From an uncultured Gammaproteobacteria bacterium (GTDB lineage Bacteria; Pseudomonadota; Gammaproteobacteria; UBA6002): a DNA stretch of 64,000 nt. The translations under genes were made by a program, and so were the position numbers. Positions 9,181 through 30,500 of the stretch are shown in pieces. The notes beneath the pieces are model-generated. The model did not search any database and had not been told where the DNA came from. It saw only the letters and a program-made list of their open reading frames with translations. How positions within the stretch are numbered: the first letter of the stretch is position 1; the number at the start of each line of letters is the position of its first letter. Location of the stretch: assembly GCA_963705725.1 (NCBI GenBank), contig CAVPKM010000007.1, positions 64,001-128,000 on the forward strand, given 5' to 3'.

Positions 9181-9912
9181 ATGAAAAATCATCTGCATTT
9201 ATGCCATAATTTATGGTCAAAATTTTTTATTGCTACATTCATTGTTTCAACATTAGCTCTATCCTATCAGTCTCAAGCTGAAAATAAATCTCCCTCCACT
9301 TTACAAACTAAAGCTTTAGCTAATGTGAAATTACCTAATCCTGTCTATAGTAGCCATACATCAATTGAAGAGGCTTTAAAAAAACGTCGATCAATCAGGG
9401 AGTACAAAAATAACCCTATCACATTGCAACAATTAGCTCAGTTACTTTGGGCTGCGCAAGGTATTACTTCTGCTAAGGGATTTAGAACAGCCCCTTCAGC
9501 AGGCGCTTTATATCCTATCGAAATTTATGTTCTGAGTGGAAATGTTAAAGGTTTAATGCCAGGTGTGTATCGTTATCTCCCTAAAAAGCATGTGCTGGAG
9601 CTTCTAGCTAAAGACGATATCCGTTCAAAATTAGCAACAGCAACTTTTAATCAAAGTGGTGTGACTAATGCAGCAGCAGATATCCTCATTACTGCAGCCT
9701 ATGCAAGAACCACTGCTAAATATGGAAATCGTGGAGAACGGTTTGCACAAATGGAAGCAGGCCAGGTAGCAGAAAATATATGCTTACAAGTCACTTCACT
9801 AGGACTTGGAACAGTCACAATTGGTGTCTTCAATGATTCAAAAGTTAAAGCGTTAATGAATTTTTCCAAAGATGAATATCCATTATATATTATGCCGGTA
9901 GGAAAAATATAA
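9181..9912 (+). CDS. SagB/ThcOx-like nitroreductase-family protein with N-terminal signal/anchor
   Basis: KRRSIREY, RTAPSAGALYPIEIY, EAGQVAEN; hydrophobic N-terminus ending SQA. Confidence 0.88.
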   Translation: MKNHLHLCHNLWSKFFIATFIVSTLALSYQSQAENKSPSTLQTKALANVKLPNPVYSSHTSIEEALKKRRSIREYKNNPITLQQLAQLLWAAQGITSAKGFRTAPSAGALYPIEIYVLSGNVKGLMPGVYRYLPKKHVLELLAKDDIRSKLATATFNQSGVTNAAADILITAAYARTTAKYGNRGERFAQMEAGQVAENICLQVTSLGLGTVTIGVFNDSKVKALMNFSKDEYPLYIMPVGKI

Positions 9913-12841: not shown

Positions 12842-13350
12842 AAAATAAGCTAACCTTAATTTTTCACATTGCTTTTTTTAAAAAATCTGCCACTATAGGA
12901 CACACGAGCGGGAAATTCCCGCCCGTGCGGAACCACTAAGGTGTTAGCGCGCCTAAGGGGTTCTAGCCACAAATTAACCTAACAACACGAGGTTAACTCA
13001 TGACTAACACTAGAATATCACCTATTTGCGCAAACGCGCAAAGTCCTTTTTCTTATTCCTCCCATTTTTTGCCAAACACAAAAGCAAATTCTACCCGTAA
13101 ACCCTCGGTTAGCCGTGAGCATTTGTGGCCGGCGACAGTTTGCTTAGTTTGGCAAGAGGGGTGGATGTTCTCAAGTAACAGGACAATATTCTAAGCAGAG
13201 GGGGATTGATGGCGGGTTGGCTTACTTCCCGCCTTCAATTTTTGAACACAAACCATTGTGCTCAACCTCTCTGCTGTGTTCAGACCTGTAGATAGGTTTT
13301 GCACTGCATTAAGGAAAATCTATGCAGTCGCCTTCAATTCGAAGCGAAAT
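12842..13350 (+). ncRNA. Structured ~500-nt leader element, copy 1 (orphan; ends after the first codons MQSPSI)
   Basis: Colinear with 19445-19947; conserved promoter-like start, several hairpins with compensatory changes, embedded 64-codon ORF 13000-13194. Confidence 0.55.
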
Positions 13351-14174
13351 TTCCAATCTTGAGGAAGTGCTATAGATGAAGAGGAAATCATTCAGTTATT
13401 CAAGAATCAATCAACAATTGATCCCTATACCAATAAAGTTGTAAAAGCGAAATCTGAATGTGAAGGTCGTCCCATAACACTGTTTGGTTTTCCTAACAGA
13501 GAGCGTGCGGCAAGAATTGAACTTAAATGGCACAAAAAAGTCATCCATAAGTTTTTTAGAGTGGGTGAGCCCTTAGCAGAAGGAAAACAATCAACACCAT
13601 TTTTAATATGGTTAACAACTGTATTGAACAAAAGCATCAAAACCCCATTCCTATCCAAGGCTACTCTAGGCGCAGCTTTATTATTGCGAGTCTAAAATTC
13701 TTACGCATTATGGCGATATGCCAGAATTAATTTTCATGTTGGGGATGACTAAAATTAAACTACTCGAGTAAATTCCGTGACGCAAAGGCAGAAGGGGATT
13801 TAAAATGAGGGCTCCCAATTATGGACATTGCATATGGTGAGGATGTATTAATAGGCTTTCGAACTTTATCATGCCTAAAAGGGATAGAAATCCAGATAAC
13901 CCGCAAGTGCGCTATAAAAAATTTCTTGAGATTTTTAAAGAACGATTAGCTACGATGGAGCCTTTTAGCCATTTGGATTTGAACAAATATGGAAATATCC
14001 TGATTGGTGTAGAGCCGGAGGCAAATGAATCTGATGAAAAAACACAAAACAACCTTCATCTGTTAAGGAGCATTATAATCAATCAGGTTTTTCTAACCTG
14101 ATAAGATTTGAATTTGTGAGCCATTATATTTCCTTCTAACTAGATAGTTGTGAATAGTGAAAAACATGAACGAA

Positions 14175-14637
14175 TTTTTTGCTACTCTCCTGAAATTTGT
14201 CGCGCGATTTATACTACGAATGCAGTTGAATCCGTGAATATGAGTCTTCGGAAGGTCATTAAAAGTAAGCGCGTTTTTCCTTCGGATGATGCCGCTTTGA
14301 AGCAGCTATATTTAGCGTTTAAAAATATTTCAAAAAAATGGACAATGCCAATACGAAATTGGGGTGATGCCATGAATCGTTTTATGATTCTGTTCGAAGG
14401 CAGGCTAAAAGGGGCGATTTAGTTTAAGAACTGATTTAAAATTTTGTGCCTTCGATCGCCTGTGGATATATGCACAAACTGACTCGTTGCACTCGTCAGT
14501 ATTGCGCACATACCCACAGGCACAATAATTTTATTTGTTTATTTAAAAAATTTTTGTTATTTTAATTTCGCTATCTGGAATTCGGTAGCAAAAAATCTGC
14601 TGACTCAACCTGCTTACACAAAATTATTTACGCTACC
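14175..14637 (+). mobile_element. IS256 3' fragment including the right IR
   Basis: Near-identical to ~3550-4013. Confidence 0.92.
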
Positions 14638-14669
14638 AATATTATTTCTATAAAAATTAAAGAGTTATC

Positions 14670-16154
14670 TTGATATTAAAATTTAAAATCTTTTTTTTTG
14701 TATTTTTAGCCACAATTTTTTGTAATTGTTCTGCAAATACAGCTGAAAGTAAAACAAAACATTACCTATTAAAGCCTAGTGGTGAATATTGCGTATCTTT
14801 TGAAGATATACATCTATTAAATACCACTCTTTGTCCTGACCCAAATTTTAATGGTAAGAATGATGCGGACTTTAGCTCAGGGAATAAAGTGCACTGCCAT
14901 GAAATCATGGTCAGGATATATTATCCTACTAGAGAGTTAAATCAAAAAGCACCTTACAATTCTCCTTTTATTAAACAGTTGCAGGATAATATTAAAAACT
15001 CTAAGGATGGCTCTATAAATTTGCAACAGTCCTTAAATGAAATTTATAGTAATACATCTGAAAAAAAATCGGCTATTGATAATAAAGCCTTCCCGATTAT
15101 TTTTTTTAGCCCGGGTTTAGGTTGTTCTGTACAAACTTACGAGAACATTATTACTGAGCTAGTCAGTCATGGATATATTGTGGCTGGAGTGAATACCCCC
15201 TTTTTAAGCGGTAGTATTGAACTCCCTAATCATTATATTGTTAAACCAGTCATACCCCGTTCTACGGATGAGATTGAGAAGTCTTTTATCAATATACAAA
15301 GTAAGGATCTGGAGTTTTGTATTAATAATATTAAAAATTGGAAACATTTACGTGCATATAAAAATATGGACTTTATACACGTAGGCGCTTTTGGACATTC
15401 CATTGGCGGTAGAATTGTAGCAAATTTAACTCATTCGCAATCAAATAAGCTACAAGCCGCAGCTGCTATGGATACGGCAATCGATCCTTCAGGAGATTCG
15501 TTGAGAGGATTTGCTATCCCTTTTATGCATGAAATTGCGGCAAATAAGCTCTCAATTTCCTCATCTCCCTTAAGCTTTGTGCTAAATCAAAATGGCTTTT
15601 TGGTTCATATCTCACCTAGCCCTAATGATAAAAATTACAGTTACCACATGAATTTCTCAGATTTTTCCACCTTACAATATCAGCCAGCTGTTAAGGTTTT
15701 TCTTAATTCTTTGAAACAAAATTCGGAGAAGGATTTTAATATCAAAATTCATCAAAATTCAGTCAATGATGAAATATCACTTGGTTTGGATGAGGAGACT
15801 TATCTTTTAGCTAAAAGAAATAGCAAATGGGAATTAACATACTACAAAGGAAGAAAGAAAATAATAGATCTTGATATTATGAATATTAAAGGACTCAGTG
15901 CGCTGCTAGCCCCTTTAAACAAGCCTAAAGAGTTGAACGCTGCAAGATTAAAACAAGTTAAATTCTCTTTAACTTGTTTTAGAAAAAACATGAATGAACT
16001 AGTGGGTATAGGCAATGGCTGGGAGCTAACAAAATCTATTAATACCCATTTGATAGCTTTTTTTGATACTTTTTTAAAAGGGCAAGATAATATATCATTC
16101 AAGCAGTGTCAGCCCTTAACAACGAATGTTTATATTAAATGTAACCTAAGGTGA
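14670..16154 (+). CDS. Exported alpha/beta hydrolase (PAF-acetylhydrolase-like)
   Basis: Signal-like N-terminus, RIYYP, FSPGLG, ELVSHGYIV, GHSIGG nucleophile elbow, HMNFSD. Confidence 0.8.
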   Translation: MILKFKIFFFVFLATIFCNCSANTAESKTKHYLLKPSGEYCVSFEDIHLLNTTLCPDPNFNGKNDADFSSGNKVHCHEIMVRIYYPTRELNQKAPYNSPFIKQLQDNIKNSKDGSINLQQSLNEIYSNTSEKKSAIDNKAFPIIFFSPGLGCSVQTYENIITELVSHGYIVAGVNTPFLSGSIELPNHYIVKPVIPRSTDEIEKSFINIQSKDLEFCINNIKNWKHLRAYKNMDFIHVGAFGHSIGGRIVANLTHSQSNKLQAAAAMDTAIDPSGDSLRGFAIPFMHEIAANKLSISSSPLSFVLNQNGFLVHISPSPNDKNYSYHMNFSDFSTLQYQPAVKVFLNSLKQNSEKDFNIKIHQNSVNDEISLGLDEETYLLAKRNSKWELTYYKGRKKIIDLDIMNIKGLSALLAPLNKPKELNAARLKQVKFSLTCFRKNMNELVGIGNGWELTKSINTHLIAFFDTFLKGQDNISFKQCQPLTTNVYIKCNLR

Positions 16155-16285
16155 ATTAGATTACACTAACCAAAAAATTTATGATGATTGTCAAGAGATC
16201 AGTCATTTGTATCTGGGAAACAAATTTTAAAAGTATCTGAAATGTAATTGATATGATAGAAATATCTGTTACTACTCTTTGGGAT

Positions 16286-17107
16286 TTACAGTTTAGCTAC
16301 AAGATTCTGTCCGGCTGATTTTAATTCTTGATCAGTTTTTTCTCTTTGAATGACTTCCCCTGATTCTGCCCAGAATTGATGATGCCAGGTATCATATATA
16401 TTCCAATCTCCCTTTGAAAAAGATTCATTTTCTTGAGTAAGCATTAACCAAGCTATAAATTTAGCGGCTATTTGAGGTGGCAATAATTCACTTCGATTAA
16501 AAAACCCTTGAAAAATATTAAGGGAAGGTAATTGATTTTTATTGGCAAGGCGTAGATTTTTTTGAATGTCTGTTTCAATAATGCCAGGCATGACGGATCC
16601 AAAGACTACATTTTGAGCTTGAAATTCCGCATTGAAATACTCTTTAAGCATAAGTAAGGCAGATTTGGTTATTCCATAAGCAGCCATACCTGGCAGTGGA
16701 TGGTGAGCAAGTCCAGATGAAATATGCAAGACACGACCGCCATCTTCTAAGTGGGGAAGTAATAACTGTGTTAAACGCAGTGGTGCTTTTACATGCAATT
16801 CATAATGCAAATCCAAGATGCTGTTATCCATTACCCGAAGAGGAGAGGGTATGGCAACCCCTGCATTATGAATCAAAAATATTCCTTTCTCGGTTATAGA
16901 ATTTTTAATTTTTTGTCTATCCTGATCTTGAGTCATATCACCATCAATAATTTCAATTAAATGAGGGTACAATGCCTGTAAACTTTTTAATAATCGTTCA
17001 TTGCGCGCAACTGCGATCACTCTATGCCCCATGGAAGCAAATTTGATGCTGAGAGCTCTTCCGATTCCTCTGCTTGCACCTGTGATGATAACTGTTTTAT
17101 TTTTCAT
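16286..17107 (-). CDS. Short-chain dehydrogenase/reductase
   Basis: TGASRGIG, HNAG, SSG, YGITK. Confidence 0.92.
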   Translation of the reverse strand: MKNKTVIITGASRGIGRALSIKFASMGHRVIAVARNERLLKSLQALYPHLIEIIDGDMTQDQDRQKIKNSITEKGIFLIHNAGVAIPSPLRVMDNSILDLHYELHVKAPLRLTQLLLPHLEDGGRVLHISSGLAHHPLPGMAAYGITKSALLMLKEYFNAEFQAQNVVFGSVMPGIIETDIQKNLRLANKNQLPSLNIFQGFFNRSELLPPQIAAKFIAWLMLTQENESFSKGDWNIYDTWHHQFWAESGEVIQREKTDQELKSAGQNLVAKL

Positions 17108-17442
17108 TATGATTTCTCAAGTTATTCAATAAATTCTTTCATAATTTTGGTGTTCTTGAAGTTATGCTATGATGACCAAAGTAAGAGATTCCCTTTTCAA
17201 ATTCAAGAACAAGATTATCCTGATCTATTCAGGTTGAAACTTATTATTCTGATGACGATAATCTATTGCTAATTGCTACCTATGAGCAAAAAACTGTTGA
17301 AACGATAGTCTGTAATAGGCTGCTGAACCGTTCTATTTGGGAAAAATGGATTTCATGAAATTTCGAGGGATAACTTACCTATATGATGAAAAAAATAATT
17401 TTATGATAGATTGGATTAGTTTTTATAAGAGAGGGCTAGAGA

Positions 17443-18100
17443 ATGAATAAAGAATATTGGCATAGAAAATGGCAATTTAAAGAAATTGGTTTTAATCAAT
17501 TACAACCAAATAAACTTATGCAACAATATTTTTTCTTTTTTAAAACTGGTTCCTGGCAATTCTATTTTTATTCCCTTGTGTGGCCAAAGTCTTGATATGA
17601 TTTGGCTTGCAGAGCAAGGTTACCAAGTCATTGGCGTTGAGCTTAGTCAGATTGCTTGTGATGCTTTTTTTGAGGATAATAAAATTCCTGCCAAAATAAC
17701 GAAGCTCGAAGACTTTATTCTCTATTCTAGTGGTAACATTCGGATTTTTTGTGGTGATTTTTTTAGGATCAATCAAGCAATTCTCGGTAAAATTGATGGA
17801 ATCTATGATAGGGCAGCTTTGATTGCTTTGCCCACAAAAGTTCGCCAATCTTACTCTGAGCATTTAATTAAACTAATGACAGAAAAAACGGTCCTATTTT
17901 TAATTACTATGATGTACGACCAAGAAGAGTTGCAGGGGCCGCCATTCTCTGTTGATCAGGAAGAGATTATTGCGCTGTATGCCGCTCATTTTGATATTAA
18001 TCAGTTGTACAGTAAATCATTTGAAATACCCGCATATCTTCAGGATAAAGGATTACATTACGCTACGGAGCAAGTCTATTTGTTAACTCGTGGAAAATAG
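17443..18100 (+). pseudogene. tpm: Thiopurine S-methyltransferase, frameshifted
   Basis: ATG 17443 reads MNKEYWHRKWQFKEIGFNQ..., then the frame changes in a T-run near 17530 into PLCGQSLDM, GVELS, GDFF, YDRAAL, GPPFSV. The 3' end abuts an IS fragment. Confidence 0.8.
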
Positions 18101-18411
18101 CGGCAATTCTCAAAATGGATATTCAGAAAAAACTTTAAAGGCGAAAATGGTGAATTTACTATCCAGGTACCGAGAGATCGAAATGCAGATTTTTCTCCCC
18201 AGATTGTTGCTAAGAACCCAACGCGTTTTGAAGGGTTTGATGACAAAATCATAGCCTTTATGCGAGAGGGATGACGACACGTGATATACAGGGGCAATTG
18301 CAAGAGCTCTATGGCGTAGAAGTCTCTGCTACTTTCATTCCAATGTGACCAACGAAATCATTGAGGAAGTGAAAACTTGGCAGTGTCGTCCCTTGGATAA
18401 ACTTTATCCCA
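18094..18411 (+). mobile_element. Degraded internal IS256 transposase fragment
   Basis: Matches ~2752-3074 with several 1-bp deletions. Confidence 0.9.
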
Positions 18412-18664
18412 GGCCTATTTTTAAAGCCATGAACCCGATACTGAGACAAACTTTTTTACTTCATCCTGAAGCAAGTAAAGTTCTGCTTAAATTAGTTAAA
18501 GAGCACAATTTCCCCTTAATAAACTTAATTCCGGAAGAGGAACGTCTGATTTGCTATTTGCAGGAACCTGCAGATCTTTTGTTTTATCCAAAACTTGCTT
18601 AGGAGTTGGTTAATTTGATTTGTCATTATCCAGTGATAACTTTTTCGCCTTAAGATGAGATAAA

Positions 18665-18808
18665 TTTATTGCTAGAAAAAACTATTCGTTAATGAGCAGA
18701 ATTGGAATATCGCAATAGGATGTAAAAACATTTAAAGAAAATATCTCTCTCAGAAAATCACTGTATTTTCTTGATCCCGTTGGACACAAGCTTGAAATCC
18801 AGAAATGA
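18665..18808 (+). pseudogene. Remnant of a FosA/FosX-like VOC protein
   Basis: Reads VKTFKENISLRKSLYFLDPVGHKLEIQ, matching the YFLDPDGHKLE C-terminal motif; in-frame stop upstream. Confidence 0.5.
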
Positions 18809-19007
18809 GAATAGCTGTTAAAAAAATCGGATGCTGGTCATTAGAAAAATGTAGAGTGGTTTGTATGAGCCCCAAAAATCATTGGTATTAGTGGCAATAT
18901 GGGTGCTGGAAAAACAACTCTCGCCCACACTCTTCAACAAGATTTACAATCAATTCGGAGTTAAAATCAGCGCAAAGTTTCCTATGCATCATGTCTTTAT
19001 TTCCAAA

Positions 19008-19406
19008 TCAATCAGATACCATAGATGGATGATGAGTAAATTCAACCTCATTGCCTGAGGGATCAAGGATACTAAAAGCTTTTGTTCCAATGCCAAACGT
19101 CTTAGGTTCATCCAGAATTATAACAGGGTATTGTTTGATATATTGATACCAGGCATCCACATCCTGTGGGCAGCTAATGGCAAAACCAAAGTGCTCGAGT
19201 CTTTGAGGTTGAGCAAAATTTGCAGTGTCACCTTGATGCAAAGAAATGTTATCTTCGCTGGAGGTTAAATAGGCATAATCGTTTGTTTCATGCTCGAGCG
19301 TCATTCCAATGATATTTGTATAAAAATCAATGCATTCCTGTAGATTATTGACGCGCAGTGCAATGTGTCTAAGCCCTCTCATTTTTGGCTTTGTATTTGC
19401 ATTCAT
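19008..19406 (-). CDS. VOC/glyoxalase-family protein
   Basis: LRHIALRV...FYTNIIG, HFGF, DPSGNEVEF. Confidence 0.9.
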   Translation of the reverse strand: MNANTKPKMRGLRHIALRVNNLQECIDFYTNIIGMTLEHETNDYAYLTSSEDNISLHQGDTANFAQPQRLEHFGFAISCPQDVDAWYQYIKQYPVIILDEPKTFGIGTKAFSILDPSGNEVEFTHHPSMVSD

Positions 19407-19444
19407 TGCTTAATCCTTTCTCTTGAGTAATGAGAAGGCAGGAA

Positions 19445-19925
19445 AAAATAATCTCCTCTTAATTTTTCAGATTGCTTTTTTTAAAAAATCTGCCACTATA
19501 AACACACGGACGGGGAAACCCCCGCCCGTGCGGAACCACGAAGGTGTTAGAGCACCCAAGGGTTCTAGCCACAAACTAACCTAACAACACGAGGTTAACT
19601 CATGACTAGCATTAGGATATCACCTACTTGCGCCAACACGCAAAGTCCTTTTTCTTATTCCTCCCATTTTTTGCCCAATACAAAAGCCAATTGCACCCGT
19701 AAACCCTCGGTTAGCCGTGAGCAGTTGTGGCCGGAAGCAATTTGCTTGGTTCGGCAAGCGGGAGGGAGATTCCCGAGAATTAGGACAATATTCTAAGCAG
19801 AGGGGGTTGATGGCGGGCTGAATTGTCACCCGCCTTCAATTTTGAACACAACAACTTGTGCTCAACCTCTCTGCTGTGTCCCAACCCTTTAGATAGGTTG
19901 TGCACTGCGTATAAGGAAAATCTTT
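19445..19925 (+). ncRNA. Structured ~500-nt leader element, copy 2, upstream of the CDPS operon
   Basis: Same architecture as copy 1; embedded 64-codon ORF 19602-19796; ends in an AAGGA RBS for ORF 19926. Confidence 0.6.
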
Positions 19926-20357
19926 ATGCAGTCACCTGCCATTCAATTTGATGCTGCCCCTTGGCCGCTTAAGCCTAATGAAATTATGCAGCTCTCATCA
20001 TTCATTGCCATTGTGCTGCGCCATTTTCGCCAATGTGCTTCTTCCTGTGAAGCGAGCTATTTATCTCAGTTACAAGTCATTTCAGACTGTCATTACTTAG
20101 TTCATTTAGCACAGCAGGAAGATAGCCTCTTTTCCAGGCCTCTCTCGCTTGAGCAGATTTCAAGCGTTGCGCTTAATCTGGCAGAAGCCATCAATACCCT
20201 TAGCGATAAAATCCGGTTAATGGATTCTCCCTGGTTTTATGCGGATTTTTACTCAAGCGTCAATTATCTCTTAAGCGATAAGTTTGGTTACTTAAGTCAA
20301 GACTTCACGCTCATCAAGCAACTGCGAAAAAAAATTAATCGGGTTAAAGGAGAATAG
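19926..20357 (+). CDS. Hypothetical helical protein, first gene of the CDPS operon
   Basis: AAGGA RBS; stop 2 nt before the CDPS start; no family recognised. Confidence 0.7.
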   Translation: MQSPAIQFDAAPWPLKPNEIMQLSSFIAIVLRHFRQCASSCEASYLSQLQVISDCHYLVHLAQQEDSLFSRPLSLEQISSVALNLAEAINTLSDKIRLMDSPWFYADFYSSVNYLLSDKFGYLSQDFTLIKQLRKKINRVKGE

Positions 20358-20359
20358 GC

Positions 20360-21079
20360 ATGGAAACAACCCATACAGAGATCTGTCGTCCCCTTAAAGC
20401 AAGCTTTGCAGGAGCCAAAGCTTTTCGCCACCATTTCAGCCGGGCAACTGCCCAGCTCACCATCAGCATTGGCCAAGCGGTGCACGAAGGAGAGCGCTTA
20501 GCCGCTACCTTAGCGCTCATCAATCGCTCCTTTGCCAGTTGTAAGGTGATGATCGATGATAGTATTCAATGGTATACCTTAGCGATTAACGCGCCGGAAC
20601 AATCCTCCTCCCTCTTACTCCAAAACGCAATTGCAGCAGGGGATCACTACCTGAATACCACCTCAGCACTCTTTCAGTCATCACTCACCATTCCTTATGA
20701 AATTGTCCGCTGGAAAGATTGGCACGGCCTGCCCAGTTGGCAAACGGCGGTGGCCTTGATGCATCAAGACTATGAGGAAAATACGCTCCTTCGCAGCGAA
20801 ATTCAAAAAAACATCACGACCTTTCTAGATCGCTATGAGAAGCGGGGAACGGATAAGACCTATGATCGATCTCGCGCCTGGCGACTCTGCCTTCATTACT
20901 TATTAGAAGAATGTGCGGTGATGCGTACCTTTTGGGTGGAACTGGGTTGTCATTATGAGGTGTATCCGAGTGGTCGCAATGAAGCGATGCGCGCCACCTA
21001 TGAGCATTATATTCAGCCTTATCATCCGCATTTATTAACATCGATTGCGCTGCGTTTTCATCGACTCGGCAGGGAATAA
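20360..21079 (+). CDS. tRNA-dependent cyclodipeptide synthase (CDPS), XYP subfamily
   Basis: ISIGQAVHEGE (catalytic Ser), DDSIQ, RWKDW, YLLEECA (Tyr/Glu), EVYP (XYP signature); 239 aa is typical CDPS size. Confidence 0.82.
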   Translation: METTHTEICRPLKASFAGAKAFRHHFSRATAQLTISIGQAVHEGERLAATLALINRSFASCKVMIDDSIQWYTLAINAPEQSSSLLLQNAIAAGDHYLNTTSALFQSSLTIPYEIVRWKDWHGLPSWQTAVALMHQDYEENTLLRSEIQKNITTFLDRYEKRGTDKTYDRSRAWRLCLHYLLEECAVMRTFWVELGCHYEVYPSGRNEAMRATYEHYIQPYHPHLLTSIALRFHRLGRE

Positions 21080-21084
21080 AAGGA

Positions 21085-22722
21085 GTGGCGATGAACCCCA
21101 CGAAAAGAGTAGCAGCAGGCAAGCAAGCGGTGAATTGTCAACTGGTGCTAGAAAGTTTACTGCGACATTTACCCGGTCATGTCTATTGGAAAAATACAGA
21201 TGGGATTTATCTTGGTTGTAATGATCGTCAAGCACAAAGTTTAGGTCTGACTTTAGGCCGTGAAGTAATCGGTAAAACCGATTTTGAGCTCCCTTGGCAG
21301 GCAGAATTAGCAGCGCATTTTTGGGAAAATGATCGCCAAGTGTTAGTGAGCGGCTTATCAAAAACGGTAGAAGAAATGGCGGTGATAGATGGGAAGGCAG
21401 CCATGGTGTGGAGCATCAAGGTTCCCTTAAAAACCGATCAAGGTCAAATGGTCGGGGTGCTGGGGATTTCCATTGATATCACGGCGCAAAAAAAGGCAGA
21501 AGCCAAATTAATCCAAGCTAAGGAGAATGTGGAAGCGGCCTATTTGACTAAAACCCGATTTTTAGAAAACCTGCGTCATGATATTCGCACCCCGATCAGC
21601 GGGATGCGTGGCTGCATCCAGTTGTTGCAAGACTGCTTAGAGGAAAAAAATCCAGAAATAAAGCAAGCCAAAGAGTATTTGCAGGATGTAGATAGTTCGA
21701 GTAGCGAGCTCTTAAGCTTATTAAATAAGGTGACGATGAGCACTCAAGCCATGGATGGGGTGTCTGCGCTTAAAAAGCAGCGCGTTAATCTAAAGTGTCA
21801 ACTGCTTTCTCTATTAAAGCTCAATCAAGCACGAGCAAAAGAAAAAGGACTGAAGTTAGCGCTGAAATATGATGAATCGATTCCCTTATTAATTGGGGAT
21901 GGCGAGCGTATTGAGCAAATTCTGGTAGAGTTAATGAGCAATGCCTTAAATTTTACGGATAAGGGCGGCATTACCCTCACCGCTCAGCTTGCAAAGCAAG
22001 CAGGAGAGCGGGTCATTATTAAAATGATGGTTCAAGATACCGGAATTGGCATGACCCTTGAAAAGCAGCAAGCCCTATTTACGCGCTTACCACATTTATC
22101 TGCTGCTTATTCAGGCTTATCACGTGGGATGGGCCTAGGATTAGCCTTAATCAAACAAATCATCGATGAACTGGAGGGAGAGATTTATGTCGACAGTTGT
22201 CCAAAAAAAGGCACGACTTATACCTGTATCTTGCCGCTACAAGTTGCATTATTAAATGAGCAGGAACTGCAGCTGAATAAAAAAGCAGGCAATACGATTT
22301 CGCTCACTATGGCTGCAAAAGCACAGCCATTTTCTTCCCCAAAGGCGAGTGCAATTCGGGTATTGTTAGTGGAAGATGACCTGATCGCCCGGAAAGTGAG
22401 CGCGGTCTTGCTCACCAAGCTTGGATGTCAGGTCAGCCTAGCTGAAACGGTGGCTTCTGCTCTTGAAAAAATTAAATCGGAAAGTTATGAATTAGTTTTT
22501 ATGGACATTGGGTTACCAGATGGCAGTGGGATAGAGGTAGCAAAAGTAGCGAGGCGAAATAAGGCCAGTCAAAATCAAGCCACACCCATTATTGCGGTGT
22601 CGGCCCATGTTGATGAGGCAGGCAAAGCCGCTTGTCATCTTGCGGGGATGGATATCGTGCTTGCTAAGCCCTTATCGGAGGAAAAGGTGCGAGCTATATT
22701 GGCGCTTTTTGTTCGGAAATGA
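21085..22722 (+). CDS. Cytoplasmic hybrid sensor kinase PAS-HisKA-HATPase-REC
   Basis: PAS LPGHVYWKNTDGIYLGCN...GKTDF; H-box RHDIRTP; NALNFT, DTGIG, GLGL; receiver VEDD/MDIGLPDG/AKP; no TM segment. Confidence 0.93.
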   Translation: MAMNPTKRVAAGKQAVNCQLVLESLLRHLPGHVYWKNTDGIYLGCNDRQAQSLGLTLGREVIGKTDFELPWQAELAAHFWENDRQVLVSGLSKTVEEMAVIDGKAAMVWSIKVPLKTDQGQMVGVLGISIDITAQKKAEAKLIQAKENVEAAYLTKTRFLENLRHDIRTPISGMRGCIQLLQDCLEEKNPEIKQAKEYLQDVDSSSSELLSLLNKVTMSTQAMDGVSALKKQRVNLKCQLLSLLKLNQARAKEKGLKLALKYDESIPLLIGDGERIEQILVELMSNALNFTDKGGITLTAQLAKQAGERVIIKMMVQDTGIGMTLEKQQALFTRLPHLSAAYSGLSRGMGLGLALIKQIIDELEGEIYVDSCPKKGTTYTCILPLQVALLNEQELQLNKKAGNTISLTMAAKAQPFSSPKASAIRVLLVEDDLIARKVSAVLLTKLGCQVSLAETVASALEKIKSESYELVFMDIGLPDGSGIEVAKVARRNKASQNQATPIIAVSAHVDEAGKAACHLAGMDIVLAKPLSEEKVRAILALFVRK

Positions 22723-22933: not shown

Positions 22934-25900
22934 ATGCAATACAAGCAGCAAGCGTATCCCTTTAGTTTAATTTCAAGTAAGGGATTAGGAAAAACCTACT
23001 CGTCCTTCGATAAAATTGGACCGCTTCTGCCGATGAAAGGATTTGGCGCGGCAGGATTAACATTTTATCCGAATGTGGCAATAGGGAACTTATTTTTTCA
23101 AGACCATATGCTAAAAATTGAAGAGCAGGGCGGGATCCTTGAGCTTGGGTTTATTTACAATAGTCAAGCAGCAAGCGTGGATCCGGTTTGGCAGTTTGCG
23201 CATCCTAAATTTTATTTGTTATCGCGTTATTCTCAGCAAGTAGTGCTTTCTGAAGCAGATGGCTATCGTACAATCTATACGTTAGATCTCAAAAGCGGTT
23301 TTTTTTATAGTGAGACAGGCTCAAGAAAGGGAATCGCTTGGCTTTATTATCAGGAAGCCAATCAGCAATGGGTGCATTATCGACCTTTTGATCAAGTGAC
23401 GGAATATTTTAATGCGGAAGGATTGCTAGTAAAGCGTGAAACGAAAGCCGGTAACATCACAATCTATTATTATGATGCGTATTTACGCTTAAAAGAAATC
23501 ATTGGTGCAAGTGGTAACCGGTATAAATTTCACTATCAAGAAAATACACTTTCTCTTTATTTAGTGACGCTTGATTCCTCCGAGCAATTGTTGCAATCCT
23601 ATTTGTTTGATCTTGAGGGAAGACTTACCTTAAGCCAAACGCCGGATGGGTATCAAACCCAGTATTTTTACAGTGAAGTGTCTGCTCGGCAATTATTGGC
23701 GGTGAAACAATCTGACCAAACGATGTTAGGTTTTGGTTATGATCATTCCAATCGATTAGTGGAATGTTGTTTAGGCGATGCCTCCACGTTTACTTTGCAG
23801 TATCCAAATGAAACACAGCCGGATTTTTTGTTCAGCGATCCTGTTGGTGGCACGACCTCACTCAAGCTAAATGACCAGGTAGCTATCATTGAAATTGCGC
23901 GATCTCAAGGTATCGGTGCTGATTTTAAGGAAAAATTGATTACCGCCTATCATTACAATGCGCTGACACAACTGACGCTTATCCTTCATCCTAACCAGGG
24001 CCAGGAAGGCTTAAGTTATACCGATCGCTTTGGGTTGGTGCGCCTGAACGAAGGGCCAAATGGGCAAATGGTCGAGCAGGTCTATGAAGAAGAAGCGATG
24101 GCTGTTCGTTTGGTTGCTGACATTCAGTATGAAACGGTTCATGGCAGAAAAAATACGCTTTTAGCGACTTATTATGTTTATGACACCGATTTTAATCATC
24201 AATATACTTTTTTACGATTTAAGATTAACCCCTTAGGCAACGTGACGGAATATCGTCCGGATCGATGTGGCAATATTGCATCTGAACGAACCTATTTGGG
24301 CGGGATTTTTGATCGAAATCAGCGAGATCCCCGCCAGGCGCCGACTTTATCAGAGATAAAAGCTTGGGTGAGCCTGCAAGATGCCGCTAAGGTGAATTTA
24401 GTTGCCTATGAATATAATCTGAGAGGGCAATGGCAACATTACTGTCAATACGCTGAGGTCGATCAAGCAGGAAAGGGGAAACTCGATGAAGCCATGGGTC
24501 AGATTTATACCTTTCGAACGCTGTATGGGGAACCTTTTTTTAAGCAGGTGAAACAAAATAATATTCAGGCAGCAGTGACCCGGCAGCGCTTTGATGCGCT
24601 AGAGCGCCTGCTGAGTAGGACCGATGCCCTTAATCAAACCACGACGGATGACTATTTTGATGCTAAAGGCCAGGTAAAAATCATTTATCCGAATGGGAAA
24701 ATTGAGATTCGGCAACAAGATGCGAGAGGAAATGGCGTTTCCCTGCAAGAGATCGTAGCGGAACAAGAGAGACTCACGCAGTATCGGCGAGATGCAAACG
24801 GGCGGGTGGTATTAACGACCAGGCCCGATGGGGAGTTTCTTTATACTTTTTTTGATCATCAAGATCGCCTCAAGTTTTGTGTCACAGCGCTTGGAATCGT
24901 CACCCAGCAGGTTTATGCGGTTAAAAACCGTTTTGTTTCGACCACCGTTTATGCCAAGTGCATTGATACTCGGCAATTATGGCCGAGTGATCCGCCACCA
25001 CCTGGCTCCCTGCCGCAAGTTGATCGCTTGATCGCCTTATTGCCGGGTATTGCGGATGAGAGTATTGATCAAACACATTATACCTTTTTTGATTTTTCTG
25101 ATCGCCCGATTTATGAGGTGGATGAGGAAGGGTATGTCACGCAATTTCAGTACAATGCGCGCAATCAAAAGCGGGTTGAGATTGCGTATGCCAACCCTTT
25201 AGAGGATGAGCAGTTAGCGGAGTTAAAAGCAGGAAAGACACTTGCTCTTCCCATTGATTTCAATCAAGACCGAGTAAAACGGGATTTCTATGATAATAGT
25301 GGCGCGCTAATTGGTGAGCAGAATAGCGCAGGTTATGTGACTGAGTATGTGTTAGATGGGGCAGGAAATACGAAAGAATGCATTCGATATCACACCCCGA
25401 TGCCGCTTGATTTAGCACTACGCGATTTTGATCAAGTGCGGCCAAATGCTGCTTTACTCGATGCGCATACCTATTATTTTCGCAATAGCAAAGGAGCGCT
25501 GGTCGGACAATTCGATCCCGCAGATAGATGGGGAGAATATTATTATACGGCGCATCACGCTTACCCCAATGGCTTAATCCAAAAAAGTATTCGATATAGC
25601 ACTAAGGTGAGTTTTCCTCTGCTTCTGCCCCCTCCAGCCAATCCCGAAGCCGATGAAATCACTCTCTATCGCTATGATCTATTAGGTAGGCTTTTAGAGA
25701 CCGTTTTTCCGAATCAGAAAAAAGACCGTCTTCAATATAATGTGTCGGGTAACGTGATTTCAGCTAAATCTCAGGATTTACACTTTCCTGACTTGATGGA
25801 TCCTGATCATCAGCGAGCCAGGCATGCGCATTACGATGCTTGGGGCCAAAAAGTTAAGGAAACGAATGAGTTTGATGGGGAAATCTTCCATCATTATGAC

Positions 25901-27538
25901 CCGATAACCGGGCTGAAAACCCATACCACGGATGCCCTAAATCGGACCACGTATTATTTTTATGATCTTGATCAACGGTGGGTGGCCTCAGTCAATCCGG
26001 TAGGGGCAGTAGTGAAATACGAGCGGGATGCGTTTGGGGAGCGAATTAAAACGATTCGTTATGCCACGCCTGCTAAGGGAATCCCTACAGGGGGTTACCT
26101 CACGCCAGAGATTGAGAAACACTTTATTGCGGATCCTGAAAAAGACCAAGTGGTGTTATTCAAACGCAATCGTTTGAGCCAAGTTGTAGAGCAAATCGAT
26201 GCGAAAGGCAACATGAGCACGTTTAAGCATAATGGCTTTAAGCAAGTAGTGGAAAAAAATTTACCGGTAGCAGGTCCCCATCCGACGTTGAGGTTATCCC
26301 ACGAATTTGAAGTGCGTGGATTAGCGATTAACACGCGGATTGAAGCACTGGATACCCCGGTTGAGCACATTGAGCGGGCTTATGCGAATTTTTATGGCAA
26401 AGAGACTTATAAAAAAGATGCGCGTGGCGGGGTTTATCGTACGTTTTATGGTTGTCGCGGTTTAGTGAGTCAAAAAATTCAAGAAAGCGGCGCTGGCGAG
26501 GCGAGTCATTTTTTCACTTATAATGCGTTTGAAGCGTTGGCTACTGAAACCGATGCGTTGAATCAGACTACCACCTATCACTACAATCATCTGGCCCGTC
26601 AACATACTCTGCATTTCCCGGTTCATGGTGTCACGCAAACCCTTATCCACAATATTTTTGATGAAAAAATTCAGGAAACGGACAGTTTGGGCAATCGCCA
26701 ACGCTTCGAGCATGCAGCAAATGGTCAAGTGCAGATTGATGAAGATCCACTGGGACACATCACGCGTAGCGAGTTTGACCTGATGGGGCAGCTCGAGAGC
26801 AAGATTGATGCTAAGGGAGTGGAAACAAGGTTTAAATACAATGAAGCGGGGGATCTATTATTCCAAATTGAAGATGCGGCGGGCTTAGGGCTTCAAACCC
26901 ACTATCAACGCGATGTGTTTGGCAATGCGCTGCAAATCACGAATCCCCGTCAAGTCGTCACGCAAAATACCTATGACCAAACAAACTGCTTAACTTCAAG
27001 CGTGCTGGATGCGATTGATTCCGGTTTAAATTTAACGATTCATCCCACTTACAATGCAATGGGAAAGGAAGAGGGCAAGCAGCAAGGCGATAAGGTTAAC
27101 CCTTTGCAGTATGAAGAAAAATATCCTCTCGATGGCCGTGGTCGACAGATCGGTAAAACCCTCGATCCAACTGGCTTAGCGCTCGCTGCTCACCAGCACT
27201 TGAATGCAGCAGGAGACGTTATTGCTGAAGTGGATTTCAATGGCAATGTGACGCGCAAATTTTATGATGATTTCGGGCAGCTTCGTTTTGTGGTGGACCC
27301 AGAAGGTGGGGTGACTGAGACAAATTATGATCTTGTGAATCGAATCCATTATACGCGTCTTTATGAAAAAAGCATTAATCCGGATCAACTGACCGATCAA
27401 ACCGATCTTCACACCTTGTTAGGGTTAGTCGAGGTAGATTCGCAAGATAGCATCCTGTTTTATTTTTATGATGCAGATGGGTTAGCGCGGTTTGAAGTCA
27501 ACGGGTTAGGAGTAGTGGCGGAAGGTGCTACGACCTAG
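22934..27538 (+). CDS. RHS/YD-repeat toxin, N-terminal part (frameshifted from the next ORF)
   Basis: NVAIGNL...YNSQ RHS-type N-terminus and dozens of YD repeats; the frame continues as RCYDLARRRIKTIHYATP after a 1-nt slip at ~27523. Confidence 0.9.
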   Translation: MQYKQQAYPFSLISSKGLGKTYSSFDKIGPLLPMKGFGAAGLTFYPNVAIGNLFFQDHMLKIEEQGGILELGFIYNSQAASVDPVWQFAHPKFYLLSRYSQQVVLSEADGYRTIYTLDLKSGFFYSETGSRKGIAWLYYQEANQQWVHYRPFDQVTEYFNAEGLLVKRETKAGNITIYYYDAYLRLKEIIGASGNRYKFHYQENTLSLYLVTLDSSEQLLQSYLFDLEGRLTLSQTPDGYQTQYFYSEVSARQLLAVKQSDQTMLGFGYDHSNRLVECCLGDASTFTLQYPNETQPDFLFSDPVGGTTSLKLNDQVAIIEIARSQGIGADFKEKLITAYHYNALTQLTLILHPNQGQEGLSYTDRFGLVRLNEGPNGQMVEQVYEEEAMAVRLVADIQYETVHGRKNTLLATYYVYDTDFNHQYTFLRFKINPLGNVTEYRPDRCGNIASERTYLGGIFDRNQRDPRQAPTLSEIKAWVSLQDAAKVNLVAYEYNLRGQWQHYCQYAEVDQAGKGKLDEAMGQIYTFRTLYGEPFFKQVKQNNIQAAVTRQRFDALERLLSRTDALNQTTTDDYFDAKGQVKIIYPNGKIEIRQQDARGNGVSLQEIVAEQERLTQYRRDANGRVVLTTRPDGEFLYTFFDHQDRLKFCVTALGIVTQQVYAVKNRFVSTTVYAKCIDTRQLWPSDPPPPGSLPQVDRLIALLPGIADESIDQTHYTFFDFSDRPIYEVDEEGYVTQFQYNARNQKRVEIAYANPLEDEQLAELKAGKTLALPIDFNQDRVKRDFYDNSGALIGEQNSAGYVTEYVLDGAGNTKECIRYHTPMPLDLALRDFDQVRPNAALLDAHTYYFRNSKGALVGQFDPADRWGEYYYTAHHAYPNGLIQKSIRYSTKVSFPLLLPPPANPEADEITLYRYDLLGRLLETVFPNQKKDRLQYNVSGNVISAKSQDLHFPDLMDPDHQRARHAHYDAWGQKVKETNEFDGEIFHHYDPITGLKTHTTDALNRTTYYFYDLDQRWVASVNPVGAVVKYERDAFGERIKTIRYATPAKGIPTGGYLTPEIEKHFIADPEKDQVVLFKRNRLSQVVEQIDAKGNMSTFKHNGFKQVVEKNLPVAGPHPTLRLSHEFEVRGLAINTRIEALDTPVEHIERAYANFYGKETYKKDARGGVYRTFYGCRGLVSQKIQESGAGEASHFFTYNAFEALATETDALNQTTTYHYNHLARQHTLHFPVHGVTQTLIHNIFDEKIQETDSLGNRQRFEHAANGQVQIDEDPLGHITRSEFDLMGQLESKIDAKGVETRFKYNEAGDLLFQIEDAAGLGLQTHYQRDVFGNALQITNPRQVVTQNTYDQTNCLTSSVLDAIDSGLNLTIHPTYNAMGKEEGKQQGDKVNPLQYEEKYPLDGRGRQIGKTLDPTGLALAAHQHLNAAGDVIAEVDFNGNVTRKFYDDFGQLRFVVDPEGGVTETNYDLVNRIHYTRLYEKSINPDQLTDQTDLHTLLGLVEVDSQDSILFYFYDADGLARFEVNGLGVVAEGATT

Positions 27539-27591
27539 CGCGCCGTAGAATCAAGACAATCCATTATGCCACGCCGATTAACCCCGCGCTG

Positions 27592-30500
27592 TTGCCGGTC
27601 CTAACCACGGCCGCACTGAGCAGGCTGGTCAAACTGGAAGAAAAAAATCCCAAAAACCGCATCTCATATTTTATTTTAGATGCAAAAGGCCAGCAGCGAT
27701 TTTGCATTGATGCTGAACATTATCTCTCTGAACAGCGCTATGATGCCAATGGAAATGGGATTGCCAACATTGCCTATGCGCATCGCCTTGCTGATCCAGA
27801 GAAAATTGCTCGACTCGCGCCACTTGAGGTATTAAAAAATATCACGCTCGATCCTTTACTCGATCGCACCAGCTATCAGGTTTTTGATCACGTAAACCGA
27901 CCGGCATTTCGTGTGGATGGGGAAGGGGCGGTCACACAATATTTTCATGATGAAAATGGAAATCTTATTCAAACGTGTCAATATGCAACCAAAATTGCGG
28001 TGCCAAGTGAGTACCAAGACTTAGTGATTCGATTAAGGCAATTGACACCGAGTCCCCAGATTGATCGCATTAATGAATACAGATTTGACCACGCCGATCG
28101 TCAAATTGGCGAAAAAGATCCCTTGGGTTATGTGGATGAATTTAGAAAAGATGCGGTAGGAAACACGATTTTGCATCGTGATCGTGCAGGCAATGATTGG
28201 GGATATCAGCATGATGGGGCCAATCGCTTAACCCTTGAAACGCTGCCAAAGGTGGGTGTGACCGCTATGACAAAAAAGATCGCGCATAACCAGGTGACAT
28301 TGTCTGACCAAACCCGCGACATGGCCATTGAAAATAAAAAAATTTTAGATGCCAATGGCAATGAAACACAAATCATCCGAGCGGCGAATACGGATGCCCC
28401 AAGAATTCTCCACTGTACTTACAATAAGCGCCGTCAACTTGTTGGAACGCGCATGAATCAAGTGCTGATTGATGATGAAACGAAAGCCCCAAGCTTTGAT
28501 TTCCCGCCGGTTAAAGTCGTCGATCTCACTACCCAGATTGTTTATAACGCAAAAAAATTAAAAGTTTGTCAGCAGGATGAATCCGGCAATTGGTCTTTTT
28601 TTGTTTATGATTGTGAAGGCAATTTATGTGATGAGGTCGATCCCCTTGGCGCGGTCAAGCAGTATGAATACAGTGCCTTTGGAGAGGTGATCCACGAAAG
28701 GGCCTTTGCCACTCCCATTCAGTTAGATTTAGCGCTTTTTACGCAAACCGGTATTCCGCTTTCAGTGATTCAAGCACCCGGCGTGATCGAACCCAGCCTT
28801 GATGATCGTCTAAAAACCTATGTGCGGGATAATCGTGGTGATATTATCTTAATTGAACAAGGTCCCACCTTCTATTATTTGCCAAACGGCAGCGATCAGC
28901 CGAGCTATCAATTGGGATATTCTCAAGTGAAGTCGCATTATAATGCCTTTCGAGAATGCGTGCACCAAGGTGTGTTAATCGATCCGAAAGCCGATACTTG
29001 GACACAACGGCTTGAGTGGTTTGATCGAAATGGTAAGCAGGTAGCCAAATGTGATCCCGAGTTTAGGGTGGTCCGCATCCGCTTTGATGCATTTAGCAAT
29101 GCTATTCAAAAAATGGAATGGGCAAATCCACCAAAAATGCTGCCAACTAGGCTCACCCCTTTACTCGAACTAGACCACAGTCATGTTCCTTCTCTAGCGG
29201 ATCGCCATTTTATTTTTGATTATGACTTGGCGGGGCAGTGTATTCAAAAAACCACCAAACAAGTGATCGTGCAGCAGATTCGTTTTGGGGTCAATAATAT
29301 TCCCGCTATGGAAAACAAACCCGCTCAAGATTTGATCCAACAATACCAATATAATCCCTTAAGAAAACAAATTCGCCTCACCTATGAAGACGGCTCAACA
29401 GCTTTCACCTATTACAATGCGTTAAGCTTAGTCATCGCGAGAACGGGTTGCCCGCGCGAAACCCTGTTTGCTACGACACTGATTCCGTTAAGTTATTTTG
29501 GCTATGATGCGTTTTTGCAGCAAGTGATGACGACGCGCTTTAAAAAAGGGACAGCGGCAGCCAACTTGGATTCGTTGCCTGTGCCAATTAAGCGAGATAA
29601 CGGCGATCAAACGGAGTTAACCTACCTGGATTCTCGCGGTCGTGTAATTTATGCACAAGATGCAGCCGGTGAGGTTGAGGGCTTTACCTATAATGCGATG
29701 GCGAAGGTTGCCCTGCAGTGCTGGCGCTTGACGAACACGGTCAATGGAGTGGTGGTGCACTTGGATGCCAAACGCTTTCATTATGATGCGATAAATCACG
29801 TGATCCGTCTTTTTTTGCTTCGTGATAATCAAGCAATACAAATGACCGCTTACCAATGGAATCTTTTTGGCAACTGCATAGCAGAAGGACCGGGTAACCC
29901 TAGCTGCCCCCTCATTCGCCGCTTTGATGGTCTGAATCACCCTTGGTTTGATAATGAAGGCGGCCTCGACAAAATCACGCTCAGAAATTTATCAGGGGAA
30001 GTGACCGTGCGGTTAACCTCACCGACCAAAGATTTAAGACAGGTGACTTATGATGCGTTGCCCACTGTCCTCACTTGGACCCACTTAGACTTACTGCGAG
30101 AAGAAACCGTTCGCGATCGATTGGGACGCAAGATTTTGAGCACGAAGCCAGCTTATAGCCGGCCCGATACCCGCCATCCCATTGATATTCCCTTAAGTCT
30201 TGCTGTGGGCAAACAGTATCCAGCATTCGGCGAGGTGAGCTTAAGTTGGATTGTCCCACAAGAAAAGACGGTGGTGCTAGAGTGTTTCCTCTGGCCTTTT
30301 GGCCATCCTGAACAAAAGCAAGCCTTGCCTATTCAGACAATAAATGGGCGTTGTGGCTTGGGGGTTTCACACTTATTGGATCGTTATCGGTATCAAATTA
30401 ATTATTATTTTATCAATCCCCTCACCAAACAGCTTGAGGCAACCCCGATGTTTCAAACAGAAGGGGAAGTGCAGATTGTGGGGAATTCGCTCAATCCATG

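Follow-up and report, generated by a model that had tools for sequence, protein, structure and literature searches.

A repeated, putative operon leader with a conserved small gene and a predicted SymR-type antisense RNA in an uncultured gammaproteobacterium

The cassette and its copies

The window analysed here, 64,000 nucleotides of DNA from an uncultured Gammaproteobacteria bacterium (GCA_963705725.1, contig CAVPKM010000007.1, positions 64,001 to 128,000), carries two copies of a cassette of about 500 nt, copy 1 at 12842-13350 and copy 2 at 19445-19947, each built around an open reading frame (ORF) of 64 codons. We propose that the cassette encodes a cis-antisense RNA of the SymR type, which would block translation of the small ORF, and that the whole serves as an operon leader. 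The features of the two copies are listed below, where SD is the Shine-Dalgarno sequence, CDPS cyclodipeptide synthase, sRNA small RNA, and R2 a covariance model of the antisense RNA built only from the sequences gathered in this study.

Copy 2
19472..19499, plus strand: putative sense promoter, read by eye, with TTGCTT (19472-19477), a 16-nt spacer and CACTAT (19494-19499)
19495..19609, minus strand: predicted SymR-like antisense sRNA of ~110 nt, from its fold, an R2 score of 50.4 bits and covariation; both ends are predictions
19569..19604, plus strand: initiation region, with CCACAAA (19569-19575), a TAACCT/AGGTTA hairpin that holds the SD GAGG (19577-19597) and the ATG (19602-19604)
19602..19796, plus strand: small ORF of 64 codons whose halves pair as a rod, from the open frame, dN/dS, alignment and fold
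19614..19622, minus strand: putative antisense promoter, extended -10 box TG-A-TATCCT, inside codons 5-7 of the small ORF
19797..19875, plus strand: 3' element, GCAGAGGGGG/CCTCTCTGC (19797-19806 with 19863-19875) around a hairpin at 19807-19839, with a U-run at 19840-19843; -42.5 kcal/mol, z -6.86
19926..22722, plus strand: operon of ORF143 (19926-20357), a CDPS-like protein (20360-21079) and a PAS hybrid histidine kinase (21085-22722)

Copy 1
12869..12896, plus strand: putative sense promoter, read by eye, with TTGCTT (12869-12874) and CACTAT (12891-12896)
12893..13007, minus strand: predicted antisense sRNA, three hairpins at -54.0 kcal/mol, z -7.26; R2 score 53.4 bits
13000..13194, plus strand: small ORF of 64 codons, open frame; dN/dS against copy 2 of 0.35
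13012-13020, minus strand: putative antisense extended -10, TG-A-TATTCT, a conserved box
13194..13275, plus strand: 3' element, an outer helix around a hairpin and then a U-run; -43.4 kcal/mol, z -7.33

The two copies can be aligned from end to end, as expected from the original prediction of a ~500-nt duplication. They are 86% identical by BLAST, with a mean column identity of 85% when flanks are included and 88% over the 247 nt of repeat family D10 (12958-13204 against 19560-19806). Their homology sets in at about 12842 and 19445, at the promoter-like stretch, and stops some 24 nt inside the next reading frame. In copy 1 this frame is the remnant of an ORF143 start (MQSPSI..., 13322-13375, plus strand); homology to copy 2 is lost there, just where a cut after MQSPSI had been read, and the operon is gone. 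A fragment of a Mutator-family transposase lies downstream of copy 1 (14150-14419) and probably marks the rearrangement that removed its operon. This IS256-like fragment can be followed over 14150-14474, and a 300-nt repeat that is 97% identical occurs at 3551-3850. A third copy was found on another contig of the same genome (G000, 1.58 Mb in 20 contigs; C10:2206-2704, minus strand) by BLAST, and is 94% identical to copy 2. It is followed by the same operon, in which ORF143 has been joined, through an internal deletion, to the end of the gene behind it; since copy 3 was duplicated with its operon, we conclude that the copies come from a segmental duplication of which the operon was part.

Relatives were sought in four other genomes of the genus (G001-G004) and in a sample of 151 genomes of the class. 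BLAST returned ten partial matches in the congener G002, and their alignment showed the whole element to be conserved, with hairpins that are visibly compensated. R1, a covariance model for the 5' part as read on the plus strand, found three matches in the genome of the window, 22 in G002, one in G001, two weak ones in G004 and none in G003, and gave weak matches in five other genomes of the class sample. These distant matches share the 5' module only, consisting of a long hairpin, CUA(A/G)CCACAA, the SD hairpin and AUG. R2 had 33 matches in G002 and, at E up to 0.001, hit 13 of the 151 sampled genomes. The long-type set analysed below comprises 24 full copies (three from G000, 20 from G002 and one from G001) that form 10 sequence clusters. 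A 24-base gapped signature of the long type, searched against genome_contigs, retrieved 16 stretches from only three metagenome-assembled genome (MAG) records, with records of the own genome possibly left out; by record title, 14 are from an uncultured Gammaproteobacteria bacterium, one from a Coxiellaceae bacterium and one from an uncultured proteobacterium. In G002 the repeat reaches at least 1.8 kb into the downstream genes.

A predicted structured RNA opposite the translation start

Across the 5' module the minus strand folds better than the plus strand. In copy 2, folding of minus-strand 19493-19610 gave -55.4 kcal/mol (z = -5.76) and three hairpins without interruption, compared with -38.2 kcal/mol for the same stretch read as plus strand, and the antisense fold was the stronger in 23 of the 24 long-type copies and in 10/10 cluster representatives (means of -53.5 and -39.4 kcal/mol). 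The three-hairpin fold was common to all eight antisense RNAs that were folded, copy 2 and seven representatives, at z -4.4 to -8.3. In copy 2, hairpin H1 contains the anti-AUG and anti-SD sequences, H2 has a UU/UU internal loop, and H3 is GC-rich and, with its tail, was scored as terminator-like on the minus strand (19532..19503). Being cis-encoded, the antisense RNA would be complementary in full to the start codon, the SD and the 5' untranslated region (UTR), and the entire initiation region of copy 2 (19569..19604) lies within this complementarity.

The base pairs themselves distinguish the two strands. When the 26 pairs of the seed alignment (A6) are read as antisense RNA they comprise 398 Watson-Crick, 104 G-U and 33 A-C cells, and the 104 G-U cells therefore become 104 A-C mismatches if the plus strand is read. 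In 44 sequences realigned with R2, 92.7% of cells were paired, against 72.9% in shuffled alignments and 35-46% when the pairing partners were slid; 22 of the 26 pairs were altered on both sides, and none of 500 shuffles did as well. The alignment was fitted to R2 and is hence biased toward structure, but we consider the signal real because of the slid control and because two antisense G-U pairs are near-invariant (columns 10-48 in 41/44 sequences and 11-47 in 36/44). RNAalifold on MAFFT alignments misses helices where hairpin lengths differ, and structures given by hand, realignment to the covariance model and single-sequence folding were used as the remedy. The compensatory changes first noted between copies 1 and 2 proved real once relatives were added, and covariation in the larger alignment was strong. 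What has to be revised is the strand, as the original prediction read the 5' hairpins primarily as a plus-strand leader, whereas the conserved G-U pairs exist on the minus strand only and point to an antisense sRNA of the SymR type.

A candidate promoter for this RNA lies inside the small ORF. An extended -10 box, TG-n-TAnnnT, precedes the anti-start codon by exactly 9 nt on the minus strand of 24/24 long-type copies, and TAnnnT stands 9-10 nt ahead of the anti-start codon in 9/9 distant copies; two of the invariant bases of the box are third-codon positions. A start about 7 nt past the box would give an RNA with the 5' end (A/G)nCAUGA, much as the SymR and PtaRNA1 models begin. On the plus strand, relatives carry TTGATT/TTGCTT ... 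GATAGT boxes homologous to the putative sense promoter. A hairpin TTGCGC/GCGCAA followed by GUCCUUUUUCUU (13025-13052 and 19628-19655, plus strand) was called terminator-like by the scan in both copies and is compensated to TTGTGC/GCACAA in relatives; read on the minus strand, this block would supply the antisense promoter with its -35 and A-rich upstream region.

A scan of the window at the Rfam gathering threshold returned two tRNAs only, and an E-value scan of copy 2 (window 19400-20000, E up to 10) gave chance-level matches only, with no SymR; the window copies thus match no Rfam family. On the antisense strand of distant copies, sub-threshold matches were obtained to SymR at 30.3-39.5 bits (cut-off 61) and to PtaRNA1 at 24.7-30.2 bits (cut-off 47). 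Within the genus, RF01809 (SymR) scored 28-46 bits on short-type relatives, the best being 45.9 bits for a short-type copy in G002 and so below 61, and RF01811 (PtaRNA1) reached 34.0 bits at best, below 47, with no match in G000. In the reciprocal search, R2 recovered the annotated symR of Escherichia coli K-12 as its only match in 20 kb, on the right strand, at 43.1 bits and E 1.9e-8; the match spans 9832-9911 and the annotation 9836-9912, so the ends agree within 4 nt. On the strength of its architecture and this reciprocal model search we assign the predicted antisense RNA to a SymR superfamily, though outside the Rfam family itself.

The architecture is that of a known arrangement. SymR is reported to lie across the SD and start codon of symE and to act mainly on translation (PMC4147584). 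As in SymE/SymR, the cis-antisense sRNA of the cassette would begin just inside its target ORF and span the start codon and SD, and its anti-AUG/anti-SD hairpin is closed by CCAUGA/UUGUGG-type pairing and followed by a second long hairpin. Unlike SymR it has a third hairpin and a length of ~110 nt rather than 77; its target is a predicted helical protein of 59-78 amino acids (aa) with no SymE or Pfam match, and the cassette heads operons. The same antisense layout is found in PtaRNA1/XCV2162, and the patchy spread of R2 matches (13/151 genomes) suggests horizontal transfer. XCV2162 is likewise described as erratically distributed, and its toxin as carrying a membrane domain by prediction (PMC5367252). 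The small proteins of the cassette differ in having no membrane segment, and no Pfam family was found for them at E up to 0.1.

The small gene, its messenger and the operons behind it

The small ORF is open in 24/24 copies, encodes 59-78 aa and has its stop codon 0-5 nt ahead of the 3' helix. Between clusters its dN/dS is 0.30-0.65. The protein carries the motifs AQ(S/R)PFS near its N-terminus and PS(V/A)xHExLW in its second half, and is alignable with proteins of 68-96 aa downstream of distant modules. A profile search collected 24 proteins, none with a functional name or Pfam domain. Pfam searches at E up to 0.1, which covered both ORFs of the window, a long-type relative and four of the distant small proteins, yielded no credible family, SymE included, and the NCBIfam scan gave nothing credible either. 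The highest Kyte-Doolittle mean over 19 residues was 0.41-1.14 in 10/10 representatives, which indicates that there is no membrane segment. In the three G000 copies the C-terminal half has diverged and the conserved His is replaced by Arg. On these comparative grounds the 64-codon ORF is a real small gene of a conserved, unannotated protein family, and more than a folding scaffold.

One short-type antisense module in G002 (L077 1046-1576, contig C10; R2 53 bits, SymR 45.9) stands directly before a protein of 154 aa that is ORF143/ORF151-like by eye and whose N-terminus, MANKIVPAQPFSS, resembles that of the small ORF. This likeness hints that the small ORF may derive from partial duplication of an ORF143-type gene. 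A comparison of the small-protein profile with ORF143 by hhalign gave a probability of 0.5% and E 0.12, and does not show a relation.

The mRNA is itself highly structured. For 426 nt of copy 2, plus-strand folding gave -150.4 kcal/mol (z = -5.51; 0/100 shuffles equally stable), and the plus-strand stems named in the original prediction are present: 12903-12914/12916-12927, TAGCCACAAATTAACCT/AGGTTAACTCATGACTA, AAGCAAATT.../...AGTTTGCTT, and AGCAGAGGGG/CCTCTCTGCT at 13194-13203/13266-13275 in copy 1 and 19796-19805/19866-19875 in copy 2. The rod into which the ORF was said to fold is found throughout, with a pyrimidine block at ORF nt 45-55 that pairs with a purine block 9-22 nt before the stop in 10/10 cluster representatives. 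RNAalifold recovered a central 14-bp helix in the ORF with many both-sided changes, and an inner CCAUGAG/UUUGUGG hairpin with G-U pairs that are invariant on the plus strand. In copy 2 this inner stretch could also pair with CCACAAA...CUCAUG, the initiation region of the same mRNA, to which it is complementary, and it may act as a built-in anti-initiation element. The stretch, CC(A/G)UGAG..UUGUGG, falls in the codons around HExLW (19718-19736 and 13116-13134 in the window, and likewise in L015-type copies) and copies the closing stem of the antisense RNA.

The 3' element sets in 0-5 nt past the stop codon. Its outer helix, GCAGAGGGG/CCCCUCUGC or, in one clade, GUAGAGGGG/CCCCUCUAC, stacks on a long hairpin with a U-run behind it. 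A like fold was obtained for 13 of 14 representatives (z -2.6 to -7.3), and in L023 the 3' strand is absent. The promoter/terminator scan, with its loop limit of 8 nt, did not flag the 3' hairpin and U-run, and no alternative antiterminator pairing was found. Two further points of the original prediction are seen here, namely that the SD sits in the TAACCT/AGGTTA hairpin and that the ORF ends just before a terminator-like hairpin.

Ribosome-mediated attenuators such as those of pyrBI and trp consist of a leader ORF followed by a terminator, and the cassette resembles them in having, between promoter and operon, an upstream ORF that stops 0-5 nt before a U-run hairpin. It differs in that its ORF is long (59-78 codons) and conserved as protein, in that no antiterminator was found, and in that the stop codon abuts the outer helix and not the terminator stem. 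Systems of the hok/sok and aapA/IsoA types have compactly folded type I toxin mRNAs; the cassette has no sequence relation to these, and its protein is not a hydrophobic peptide. Compact folds, SD sequestration, long-range pairing and 5' and 3' stem-loops are given as typical of type I toxin mRNAs (PMC8594479). The mRNA of the cassette shows all of these, and its internal CCAUGAG..UUUGUGG is complementary to its own initiation region.

Near-identical copies differ mostly in loops. Nine copies in G002 (L015, L022, L024-L026, L029 and L031-L033) are ~95% identical over at least 1.8 kb. In this cluster 49 of 120 columns of the antisense-RNA region are variable, compared with 34 of 320 in the ORF and 3' part, and nine of those 34 belong to the loop of the 3' hairpin. 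It is in hairpin loops, those of the antisense RNA and that of the 3' hairpin, that the differences concentrate, and some loops are exact flips (GTTTAC/GTAAAC, ATTT/AAAT). This pattern fits a diversification of recognition loops; it could alternatively come from relaxed constraint or gene conversion.

Co-oriented genes lie just downstream of 22 of the 24 copies, and are mostly for an enzyme and a PAS hybrid histidine kinase, in line with the leader position that had been proposed. They fall into the following types.

7 copies (copy 2, copy 3, L027, L028, L034, L030, L035): distant CDPS-like protein, then PAS hybrid kinase where the DNA reaches far enough
5 copies (L019, L036-L039): methyltransferase, then kinase
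8 copies (L015 cluster): carbamoyltransferase-like protein, with a kinase next in the one copy extended (L015)
1 copy (L016): ORF143 homologue, then receiver protein
1 copy (L031): other ORFs downstream
2 copies (copy 1, L023): orphan

The clusters of the element track three operon types. For copy 2, the label of a CDPS-kinase operon in the original prediction was sound in its second half, as the kinase has the Pfam domains PAS_4, HisKA, HATPase_c and Response_reg. The CDPS half is less firm: the 239-aa protein has no Pfam match and reaches TIGR04539 at only 28.4 bits (E 1.1e-6, profile positions 16-174 of 220), short of the cut-off of 45, and is at most a distant relative of cyclodipeptide synthases. 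From the stop codon of the small ORF to the next gene there are 83-290 nt. In L019, 78 of the 83 nt before the start of the methyltransferase are occupied by the 3' hairpin, and therefore there is no room for a separate promoter. A homologue of ORF143 (L091 3398-3850; 32% identity, E 9e-17) occurs in a second genome of the genus and likewise comes right after the element; neither has a Pfam family.

Interpretation, rival readings and neighbouring features

The DNA itself shows the sequences and their folds, an asymmetry between the strands, covariation, a conserved promoter box, open frames and a gene order. From these we propose that the cassette is a cis-antisense system of the SymR type, in which translation of the small ORF is blocked and which also serves as an operon leader. 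We put the probability of this at about 0.6; the transcripts, their ends, the repression and the read-through are all deduced from the DNA. In such a system a sigma-70-type promoter would drive a plus-strand mRNA of ~380 nt that opens with the 5' hairpin, carries its SD inside a small hairpin and encodes the protein of 64 aa (59-78 aa in relatives), with the halves of the ORF paired as a rod and a long hairpin and U-run at the 3' end. On the minus strand, the extended -10 promoter in codons 5-7 would start an sRNA of ~110 nt with three hairpins, which would pair with the initiation region and block synthesis of the small protein, as SymR does, and self-folding of the mRNA would be a second lock on translation. 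A less certain step is that the operon genes would be transcribed by read-through of the 3' hairpin, making the cassette a regulated leader; read-through is probable because some copies leave no room for a promoter of their own. The geometry gives no clear sign that translation is coupled to termination, since a ribosome on the stop codon would sit over the outer helix alone. The small protein itself may be a toxin, a regulator or a partner of the kinases. New in comparison with SymR are the family of the target protein, the unusually elaborate fold of the mRNA and the consistent position before enzyme-plus-kinase operons.

Several results weigh against this proposal. The 5' module also beats its shuffles on the plus strand (z -4.12), and the SD hairpin may have a role on the sense strand. 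The window copies match neither SymR nor PtaRNA1 at any threshold, and nothing in G000 does. Promoters, start sites and terminators were called by reading the DNA only: a consensus promoter scan flagged neither the sense nor the antisense promoter in copy 1 or copy 2, which leaves of the promoter originally predicted at TTGCTT...CACTAT the boxes themselves but no score, and the minus-strand terminator was flagged in copy 2 and not in copy 1. The antisense box overlaps conserved codons (Ile/Leu-Pro/Ser), and constraint on the protein may partly explain its invariance. The 24 copies are paralogues that form 10 clusters from only three genomes, and the counts overstate their independence. For the small protein, one cluster of near-identical copies has an internal dN/dS above 1, its changes lying toward the N-terminus, and the AlphaFold2 model, with two helices, is of low confidence (pLDDT 61.8, pTM 0.31). 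In the ORF and 3' part the advantage of the sense strand is modest (20/24 copies, 7/10 representatives, -101.3 versus -93.9 kcal/mol). The outer 3' helix has a single compensatory event, C-G to U-A, in four sequences of one clade, other MAFFT-based consensus folding of the 3' element was unsuccessful, and a ribosome at the stop codon would cover this helix and not the inner hairpin.

One alternative is that the cassette is a true type I toxin-antitoxin (TA) module, acting in addiction or stress, in which the small protein would be toxic and the antisense RNA its antitoxin, and whose position before kinase operons would stem from co-duplication and not from function. An antisense RNA of the SymR/PtaRNA1 type, a compact mRNA with its SD sequestered as in type I toxins (PMC8594479) and the multiple copies in G002 (the 33 R2 matches) all speak for such a module, and distant copies adjoin type II TA-like genes, with RHH/BrnA-like C-termini upstream and a RelE-like ORF downstream of L017 (labels by eye). 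The lack of a membrane segment, with a Kyte-Doolittle 19-residue maximum of no more than 1.14, departs from the classical picture, although SymE is itself a non-membrane type I toxin, and SymE and RalR are known exceptions to the hydrophobic membrane rule (PMC4147584). We nevertheless think a TA module unlikely, given that there is no SymE, Pfam or NCBIfam match, that 22/24 copies hold the same position before co-oriented genes of three operon types which the clusters follow, and that in the G000 copies the C-terminal half has diverged and the conserved His is gone. Fainter still is the case for a cis-regulatory leader on the plus strand alone, a riboswitch or ribosome-mediated attenuator in which the 5' hairpins act in the mRNA and no antisense RNA is made. 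The plus strand does fold well, both as a whole (z -5.51) and in the 5' module (z -4.12), the SD is in a hairpin, the upstream ORF ends beside a U-run hairpin, and the in-ORF hairpin and U-run are terminator-like in both copies. Against such a leader stand 5' helices that have conserved A-C mismatches where the minus strand has G-U pairs, an antisense fold that is on average 14 kcal/mol more stable, the conserved minus-strand promoter box and the reciprocal SymR match, and no alternative antiterminator pairing was identified.

A self-spreading mobile expression cassette, akin to a miniature inverted-repeat transposable element (MITE), had been considered in the original prediction and now appears very improbable. 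Multiple copies exist (three here and 20 full ones in G002), and copy 1 is detached from an operon and close to a transposase fragment. No terminal inverted repeats were found at the ends of the element, and the MITE reading was rejected for their lack. Moreover, copy 3 was duplicated with its operon, the G002 repeat runs at least 1.8 kb into the downstream genes, and orientation and position relative to those genes are fixed, all of which speaks for segmental duplication together with the operon.

An extension of the SymR-type reading, which we hold to be unlikely and offer as a speculation, is that the module is a programmable gate for paralogous operons of a signal synthase and a hybrid kinase, about 20 of them in one genome, each with its own antisense RNA. 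Loops that diverge faster than synonymous sites would prevent cross-reaction, so that many quorum-sensing-like circuits could be switched independently, and small protein, rod-like mRNA and 3' hairpin would together make a new antisense-controlled leader or attenuator and not a toxin-antitoxin system. Should the transcripts be confirmed, antisense RNAs of the SymR/PtaRNA1 class would be present in a further lineage, one of uncultured gammaproteobacteria (one related MAG record is titled Coxiellaceae bacterium), one antisense module would serve different target proteins, including an unannotated small-protein family, and an architecture like that of type I TA systems would be used as the leader of enzyme and sensor-kinase operons in ~20 copies in one genome. 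This raises the question of how near-identical cis-antisense pairs escape cross-talk. For annotation, it means that structured 5' leaders beside small ORFs need to be tested on both strands before they are called riboswitches or attenuators.

Other repeats and relatives were seen in passing. Contig C53 of G002 carries four short-type antisense modules (L041 and three further R2 matches), one of them followed by an 87-aa member of the family and then by an ORF that by eye is like a plasmid replication initiator, which suggests a plasmid-like contig. In the window, positions 1906-2456 hold a 96-nt tandem repeat of five units (71-100% identical) that would encode a repeated peptide rich in Lys, Gly, Ala and Glu. 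After the kinase operon come two very large ORFs of 1534 and 2802 aa (22934-36000) that by eye contain YD/Rhs-like repeats, and exact internal duplications of 300 nt occur at 33804-34103/36394-36693 and 35014-35313/37603-37902. Between 39350 and 46100 there are dense direct repeats in ~1 kb units, five copies that are 67-94% identical with conserved AT-rich junction motifs of 40 nt, which look like a tandem array of paralogous genes.

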